DNA of 64,000 nucleotides, taken from sequence record PV660452; one strand, written 5' to 3'. Positions 42,300 through 42,755 of this stretch are shown piece after piece (within the stretch, counting starts at the first letter, position 1; every line of letters starts with the position of its first letter). The translations under genes and the position numbers were made by a program. The notes beneath the pieces are model-generated. The model searched no databases. It was given only the letters and a program-made list of their open reading frames with translations, and had not been told where the DNA came from. The stretch comes from Escherichia phage LF82-9.

Positions 42300-42755
42300 T
42301 TATTTTAGATCTTCGGCCCAATCTAGTTTTAAGGGTTCTTTGTATTCACGGTCGAGAATAACCGGAATAGCTACATCACCACTGAATGATAGTTGGCCAA
42401 CGTTATATGATAACGTTATATGTGGAGTGTAGTCGTCGAAGTCATGAGTAGCACCTAAAGCCCGTGCATACTGATGACGACATCTAAGATATTCGGAATC
42501 AAGAACTAAAACCAGTACAGCGCCGTCGTCAGTTTTCCATACCTCAAAGTGTCCTGATTCGGCAATAGAATAACTACCACTAGATGTAGTATATGGTATG
42601 TTTACACGTGAATAGCAAATTGTCGAATGAAGCTTTTCACGTGGTACTGGATTAGGAATTCTTAATTTACGCTGGAGATCTTCCAGCGCATCAAGTGTTA
42701 ATTCTGAAAACTTAGCTGCGACGTAGAGGCCTTGTGAAAAGTCCTCAAATTTCAT
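42300..42755 (-). CDS. 57B: Anti-CBASS protein Acb1 (gene 57B), 2H-family cyclic-nucleotide phosphodiesterase
   Basis: 151 aa; two H-x-T/S motifs (HSTI, HITL) typical of 2H phosphoesterases; immediately upstream of 57A. Confidence 0.7.

Follow-up and report, generated by a model that had tools for sequence, protein, structure and literature searches.

Orthologues of the anti-CBASS genes acb1 (57B) and acb2 (vs.4) in the RB69-like Escherichia phage LF82-9

Introduction

How would an RB69-like phage deal with the cyclic nucleotide signals of CBASS: by cutting them, by soaking them up, or by both? The question is raised in Escherichia phage LF82-9 by a reading frame of 151 codons beside gene 57A, and by a second one, of 88 codons, lying where phage T4 has its gene vs.4. 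The T4 counterparts of both are well described. The name Acb1 was given to T4 57B by Hobbs et al. (PMC9117128), while Vs.4, encoded by the same gene as acb2, is the cGAMP sponge of T4, a hexamer that holds three bound cGAMP molecules (PMC10449767; PMC12657218). In T4 lysates the activity of Acb1 is dominant, and binding by Acb2 becomes visible once acb1 is deleted; when both genes are lost, plating on CBASS hosts drops about 10,000-fold (PMC11722364). The same genes can also be liabilities, as the Panoptes guard fires on the depletion of decoy nucleotides: mutations in acb2 let T4 evade type I Panoptes, and mutations in acb1 do the same for Bas35 against type II Panoptes.

This article deals with the 64,000 nucleotides of sequence record PV660452, referred to here in their entirety as the window. 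A preliminary description of this DNA, made from its letters, had proposed Acb1 for the longer reading frame on the basis of two H-x-T/S motifs, and had assigned Acb2 to the shorter one tentatively, from synteny. Homology, functional residues and predicted folds are examined below for each protein in turn, and it is concluded that the window very probably carries both of the established anti-CBASS genes of T-even-type phages. Particular attention is paid to the centre of Acb2, the part of the pair in which the window phage departs most clearly from T4.

The phage and its two loci

The window belongs to a Mosigvirus, an RB69-like member of the T4 family, whose nearest relative is Escherichia phage LF82-1, with DNA identities of 98.7% and 100% over the two regions considered here. 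The 57B region is also about 96% identical to RB69 DNA (95.9% from ipI through gene 1). BLASTP of the surrounding reading frames against the T4 proteins shows that the gene order of T4 is kept at both loci. The first cluster is collinear with T4 over vs, vs.1, regB, vs.3, vs.4, vs.5, vs.6 (a GrcA-like glycyl-radical protein), vs.7 and vs.8, and the second over trna.3, trna.4, ipI, 57B, 57A, gene 1 and gene 3. The order regB, vs.3, vs.4, ..., glycyl-radical frame, on which the first placement of the 88-codon frame at the vs.4 position had been based, is thus borne out. The two genes and their immediate neighbours are as follows:

26752..27051, minus strand: vs.3 homologue, 3′ neighbour of acb2 (59% identity to T4 vs.3)
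27051..27317, minus strand: acb2 (gene vs.4), by orthology a helical-hairpin cyclic-dinucleotide sponge of 88 amino acids
27307..27531, minus strand: vs.5 homologue, 5′ neighbour of acb2 (phrog_1986)
42300..42755, minus strand: acb1 (gene 57B), by orthology a 2H-phosphoesterase of 151 amino acids, the anti-CBASS cyclic-oligonucleotide nuclease
42755..42985, minus strand: gene 57A, encoding the tail-fibre chaperone, directly adjacent to acb1 on its 5′ side (Pfam GP57, 2.4e-24)

The acb1 frame had been placed upstream of 57A, which holds in plus-strand coordinates; on the coding strand it lies immediately downstream. The stop codon of 57A and the start codon of acb1 overlap by one nucleotide (TAATG), as do the stop of acb2 and the start of vs.3 (again TAATG), and vs.5 overlaps the start of acb2 by 11 nt. 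Such tight packing of both genes against their neighbours fits co-transcription and coupled translation. A scan for promoter and terminator consensus sequences around acb1 gave nine promoter-like sites, against 9.6 expected from shuffled sequence, and thus none above chance. The timing of acb1 and acb2 expression, taken from T4, would presumably be the same in this phage.

Several further observations concern the surroundings of the two genes:

27531..27893, minus strand: vs.6 homologue, 120 amino acids, autonomous glycyl-radical cofactor of the GrcA/YfiD type (Pfam Gly_radical, 2e-18)
28205..28745, minus strand: vs.8 homologue, split into two overlapping reading frames
39420..40367, minus strand: cluster of ten tRNA genes (Arg, Asn, Tyr, Met(CAT), Thr, Ser, Pro, Gly, Leu and Gln)
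41935..42222, minus strand: ipI homologue (Pfam IPI_T4 "nuclease inhibitor", 1.3e-51; 89% identity to T4 IpI)

The vs.6 protein is 94% identical to that of T4, while its neighbours are far less conserved (59–78%). In vs.8, the split is due to one extra A near 28466–28472, where the window has a run of seven A residues against six in LF82-1; apart from it, the identity of the two phages over 570 nt is 100%, and vs.8 is annotated in LF82-1 as a single intact CDS of 540 nt. The extra A may be a genuine frameshift, or else a sequencing error in the homopolymer. At the other locus, ipI lies directly downstream of acb1 and is a further anti-defence gene. RB69 has an additional internal-head-protein reading frame between ipI and 57B, which is missing from the window phage. 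Just 3′ of acb1 and ipI there is a mosaic junction, separating the segment ~40300..41935 from the segment 41935..43800. The former, with tRNA-Gln and trna.2 to trna.4, finds its best matches in phages of the Tequatrovirus type (vB-Eco-KMB40, 95.5%), and its trna.3 and trna.4 products share 100% and 98% of their residues with those of T4, whereas the best matches from ipI through gene 1 are the Mosigvirus phages LF82-1 and RB69, at the identities given above. The equivalent tRNA cluster of T4 has eight genes, those for Asn and Tyr being additional in the window phage, and the tRNA with a CAT anticodon occupies the place of the one that is annotated as tRNA-Ile in T4.

Acb1, a predicted 2H-phosphoesterase

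The two motifs that first drew attention to the 151-codon frame are indeed present in it, at the following positions:

42621..42629, minus strand: first catalytic motif, H43-S44-T45 (HSTI), T4 counterpart H44/T46
42414..42422, minus strand: second catalytic motif, H112-I113-T114 (HITL), T4 counterpart H113/T115

Chance might produce a pair of H-x-T/S motifs, but it cannot account for the homology to Acb1. The protein matches the Pfam family PF23474 over the whole profile (positions 1–144 of 144) with an E-value of 1.8e-58 and 196.8 bits, the cut-off being 27, and it matches the Acb1 of Erwinia phage FBB1 (PDB 7T26, of the pair 7T26/7T27) at 7.9e-59. It is 85% identical to T4 57B/Acb1 (NP_049750), the founding member of the family, and 99% identical to 57B of RB69.

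The residues that matter for function can be followed one by one. In T4 Acb1, the HxT/HxT tetrad consists of H44, T46, H113 and T115, the ligand is stacked by Y12, W74, F107 and W147, and E141 is specific for adenine; the reaction is metal-independent and proceeds via a cyclic-phosphate intermediate, and the H44A/H113A variant is catalytically dead (PMC9117128). All nine published functional residues are kept in the window protein (Y11, H43, T45, W73, F106, H112, T114, E140 and W146), and the tetrad H43, T45, H112 and T114 is invariant in an alignment of 44 homologues reaching down to 30% identity. The protein resembles T4 Acb1 in length (151 against 152 residues) and in its position within the order ipI, 57B, 57A, gene 1, and it shares with both T4 and FBB1 Acb1 the tetrad, the Y/W/F/W stacking residues, the adenine-reading glutamate and a conserved C-terminal lid sequence. 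It differs from T4 Acb1 by one missing N-terminal residue and by 23 substitutions, none of them at a published functional position.

The predicted structure points in the same direction. The AlphaFold2 model has a mean pLDDT of 88.6 and shows the compact 2H fold with its U-shaped pocket and flexible C-terminal lid, confidence being low only at the extreme ends, the lid included; low confidence over the last six residues is expected of a lid that becomes ordered only when ligand binds. A Foldseek search places 7T26 and 7T27 at the top (E 2e-19, TM 0.85/0.94, rmsd 0.9 Å, 62–64% identity), the likeness to FBB1 Acb1 covering sequence, at about 62% identity, as well as predicted fold. From its sequence and its modelled structure, the frame 42300..42755 is identified as the 57B/Acb1 orthologue, as had been proposed from the motifs, and by orthology it may be expected to have the cleavage activity of its T4 counterpart.

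Should 57B rather be regarded as an RNA ligase, or as a generic 2′,5′-RNA ligase/cyclic phosphodiesterase of the LigT type, with RNA ends instead of immune signals as its substrate? That is the name under which RefSeq holds the 57B genes of T4, RB69 and LF82-1, and the description of phrog_755 says the same. The Foldseek matches of the model also include LigT of E. coli and further 2H enzymes, which share with it the fold of the superfamily and the pair of H-x-T/S motifs. These matches are however remote (E 1e-4, TM about 0.5, 13–16% identity) when set beside the Acb1 structures. The window protein is smaller than LigT and has the lid and stacking residues particular to Acb1; Pfam Acb1 is the sole family matched at E ≤ 0.01, with no match of the LigT type. 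Degradation of CBASS signals by the T4 orthologue has been demonstrated, by biochemistry as well as by genetics. An enzyme of RNA ends would therefore come as a great surprise here, and the "RNA ligase" name is an annotation inherited from superfamily resemblance.

Acb2, a probable cyclic-dinucleotide sponge

The assignment of the 88-codon frame to Acb2 had been offered with reserve, and it gains considerably from the comparison with known proteins. The product is 66% identical to T4 Vs.4 (NP_049728), and a single structure is matched among those of the PDB, 7UQ2 ("Vs.4 from T4 phage in complex with cGAMP"), with an E-value of 9.8e-31. It also matches the Pfam family PF24729 (Acb2_Tad1_hairpin) from end to end (positions 1–58 of 58; 4.4e-18, 65.7 bits, cut-off 27). 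The equation of vs.4 with Acb2, on which the assignment depended, agrees with the literature (PMC12657218; PMC10449767). Alignment had been recommended as the way to detect a lack of similarity to either protein, and it found the opposite, at E-values of 2e-102 for T4 Acb1 and 4e-38 for T4 Vs.4.

A mechanical reading of the strand yields a longer frame of 144 codons from a TTG at 27485, which was rejected as the real product, since every homologue begins at the ATG and the added upstream codons overlap vs.5 in a different frame. That ATG, at 27317, serves as the start in T4 vs.4, in the LF82-1 annotation and in all 50 of the 50 aligned homologues, and the sequence GAGG stands 10–13 nt upstream of it.

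Mutation has shown T4 Y8 and F82 to be required for binding (Y8A, F82C), and in the Acb2 of phage PaMx33 the same holds for Y11 and K26 (Y11A, K26A), which correspond to T4 Y8 and K23. The equivalents in the window protein, Y9, K24 and F82 of the dinucleotide pocket, are invariant in 50 homologues. The model, predicted as a monomer, is a helical hairpin (helices 14–42 and 50–81, pLDDT 84.3) whose best PDB matches by Foldseek are the chains of 7UQ2 (TM 0.71), the PaMx33 structures 8H2X and 8H2J being recovered too. Structure prediction, which had been suggested as a check on both proteins, therefore leads back to 7T26/7T27 for the one and to 7UQ2 for the other.

The window protein is like T4 Vs.4 in its 88 residues, in its position within the series vs.3, vs.4, vs.5, vs.6 and, as predicted, in its helical hairpin fold; the segments that build the dinucleotide pocket (residues 3–37 and 66–88) are nearly identical, with the Tyr, Lys and Phe contacts unchanged. 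It is unlike T4 Vs.4 in the central segment (about 38–65), which is unrelated in sequence and carries a one-residue indel, and the T4 cysteines C47 and C50 are absent. With PaMx33 Acb2 it has in common the family and fold (Foldseek TM about 0.65) and the Tyr and Lys dinucleotide contacts, at only ~16–19% identity. On sequence and model, the frame 27051..27317 is thus identified as the vs.4/Acb2 orthologue, and a hexamer like that of T4 is assumed for it. No observation speaks against the assignment of either gene.

Could one or both genes nevertheless be decaying or inactive copies, in the manner of acb1 in phage Bas43? Loss of acb1 or acb2 has been reported in phages under Panoptes pressure, and the neighbouring vs.8 is frameshifted in the window. 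Both frames are however full length, with every tested functional residue conserved, and for each protein about 170 contigs encode an identical copy. Substitutions are mostly synonymous: acb1 differs from its T4 counterpart by 62 synonymous and 23 non-synonymous codons and from that of RB69 by 11 and 2, and this preponderance of synonymous differences indicates a gene under purifying selection. Decay has very little probability in view of these observations, and both genes are regarded as intact.

The hypervariable centre of Acb2

One part of Acb2 stands apart from the two ends of the protein, which hardly vary:

27123..27215, minus strand: hypervariable central cassette of Acb2, about residues 35–65, with no conserved column and with indels among 50 homologues

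It takes in the tip of the hairpin and those helix segments that in PaMx33 Acb2 form the lining of the trinucleotide pocket. Codons 48–65 of acb2 are only 33% identical to T4 at the nucleotide level, against 78–81% in the flanks, and six T4 residues of this region or close to it are replaced: Y37, A57, L60, D61, T64 and T68 become I38, M57, V60, Q61, K64 and Q68.

What might this mean for the ligands? The centre of PaMx33 Acb2 forms a second pocket in which cyclic trinucleotides are held via R67 and T74. T4 Vs.4, with D61 and T68 at these places, does not bind cA3, a property attributed to Y37, A57, L60, D61 and T64. The Arg and Thr of the PaMx33 type are absent from the window protein as well, which has Q61 and Q68 (mapped through T4 D61 and T68). 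Because both contact residues are missing, the default expectation is that trinucleotides would not be bound. Judged by its residues, the window Acb2 falls outside the trinucleotide-binding subgroup (PaMx33/JBD67 type), and the second site is probably lacking, as it is in T4 Vs.4.

The opposite argument can be made from the same alignment. Since the pocket lining is entirely unlike that of T4, the ligand range of the window allele could differ, and the cassette might for example admit a cyclic trinucleotide or some other immune signal at the threefold pocket, although this is considered unlikely. Put more broadly, the replaced cassette would have given the Mosigvirus Acb2 a range unlike that of T4 Vs.4, through the gain of cyclic trinucleotides, through the binding of a non-CBASS signal, or through a lower affinity for Panoptes decoys. 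Range is known to vary among Acb2 homologues; the centre is hypervariable, with indels even among close relatives; its nucleotide identity to T4 falls to a third between flanks at about 80%; and all of the residues proposed to block cA3 in T4 Acb2 have been replaced. The replacements do not however restore any equivalent of PaMx33 R67 and T74, and the invariance of the dinucleotide pocket leads one to expect that dinucleotide binding, decoys included, is retained. As for a non-CBASS signal, the Thoeris-binding Acb2_43 uses extra terminal beta-strands, none of which is seen in the model of the 88-residue window protein; binding of the Thoeris signal 3′cADPR in the manner of Acb2_43 was thus set aside as unlikely. 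On balance a shifted range is improbable, and a dinucleotide sponge of the T4 type is the preferred reading. For the T-even phages as a group, the hypervariable centre could nonetheless be a diversifying specificity module, shaped by the combined pressure of CBASS and Panoptes.

A probable degrade-plus-sponge pair

How might the two proteins act together? By orthology with the T4 and FBB1 enzymes, Acb1 would be a small, metal-independent 2H phosphoesterase. Its aromatic residues Y11, W73, F106 and W146 would clamp a cyclic di- or trinucleotide while E140 reads one adenine and the C-terminal lid closes over the ligand. H43, T45, H112 and T114 would then provide the acid-base chemistry by which the 2′-OH of an adenosine attacks the 3′-5′ bond, and adenine-containing cyclic di- and trinucleotide signals would be linearised.

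Acb2 would sequester the signal without destroying it. By orthology with T4 Vs.4, its two-helix hairpin should assemble into a hexamer with three pockets, each made of the N- and C-terminal ends of two protomers and each taking up one cyclic dinucleotide, gripped by base stacking on Y9 and F82 and by salt bridges to K24. Together, Acb1 and Acb2 would form a degrade-plus-sponge defence that keeps CBASS effectors from being activated, and both genes would at the same time expose the phage to Panoptes-type guards, which monitor the depletion of decoy nucleotides. For the window phage, we infer the activity of the enzyme, the formation of the hexamer, the range of ligands and the effect in vivo from its characterised relatives.

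Annotation and significance

Acb1 and Acb2 are by now textbook anti-CBASS proteins, and their occurrence in the window phage is an already known and ordinary finding that carries little weight as a discovery. The exact Acb1 and Acb2 proteins are public on about 170 and 172 contigs respectively, and UniRef lists them in Mosigvirus as "Anti-CBASS protein Acb1" and "Acb2/Tad1 hairpin domain-containing protein". Other resources lag behind: 57B is still "RNA ligase" in RefSeq/PGAP and, as an outdated label, in PHROGs, while vs.4 is a "hypothetical protein" in near-identical phage records and of "unknown function" in PHROGs. A scan of the NCBIfam models was uninformative, none of them being matched by Acb1 or Acb2. 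In the literature searched, no direct assays of the RB69 or Mosigvirus alleles of either protein were found, and a preprint on sponge diversity does not mention the T4-like alleles by name.

The functional labels Acb1 and Acb2 are worth transferring to the many outdated GenBank and RefSeq records of near-identical phages. Where both genes are intact, a phage should resist CBASS of the cGAMP, cUA and cAAA types and should be sensitive to guard systems of the Panoptes type, two predictions that matter when host range is to be forecast or phages are selected for therapy. For changes in sponge specificity, the hypervariable centre of Acb2 would be a cheap and testable place to start.
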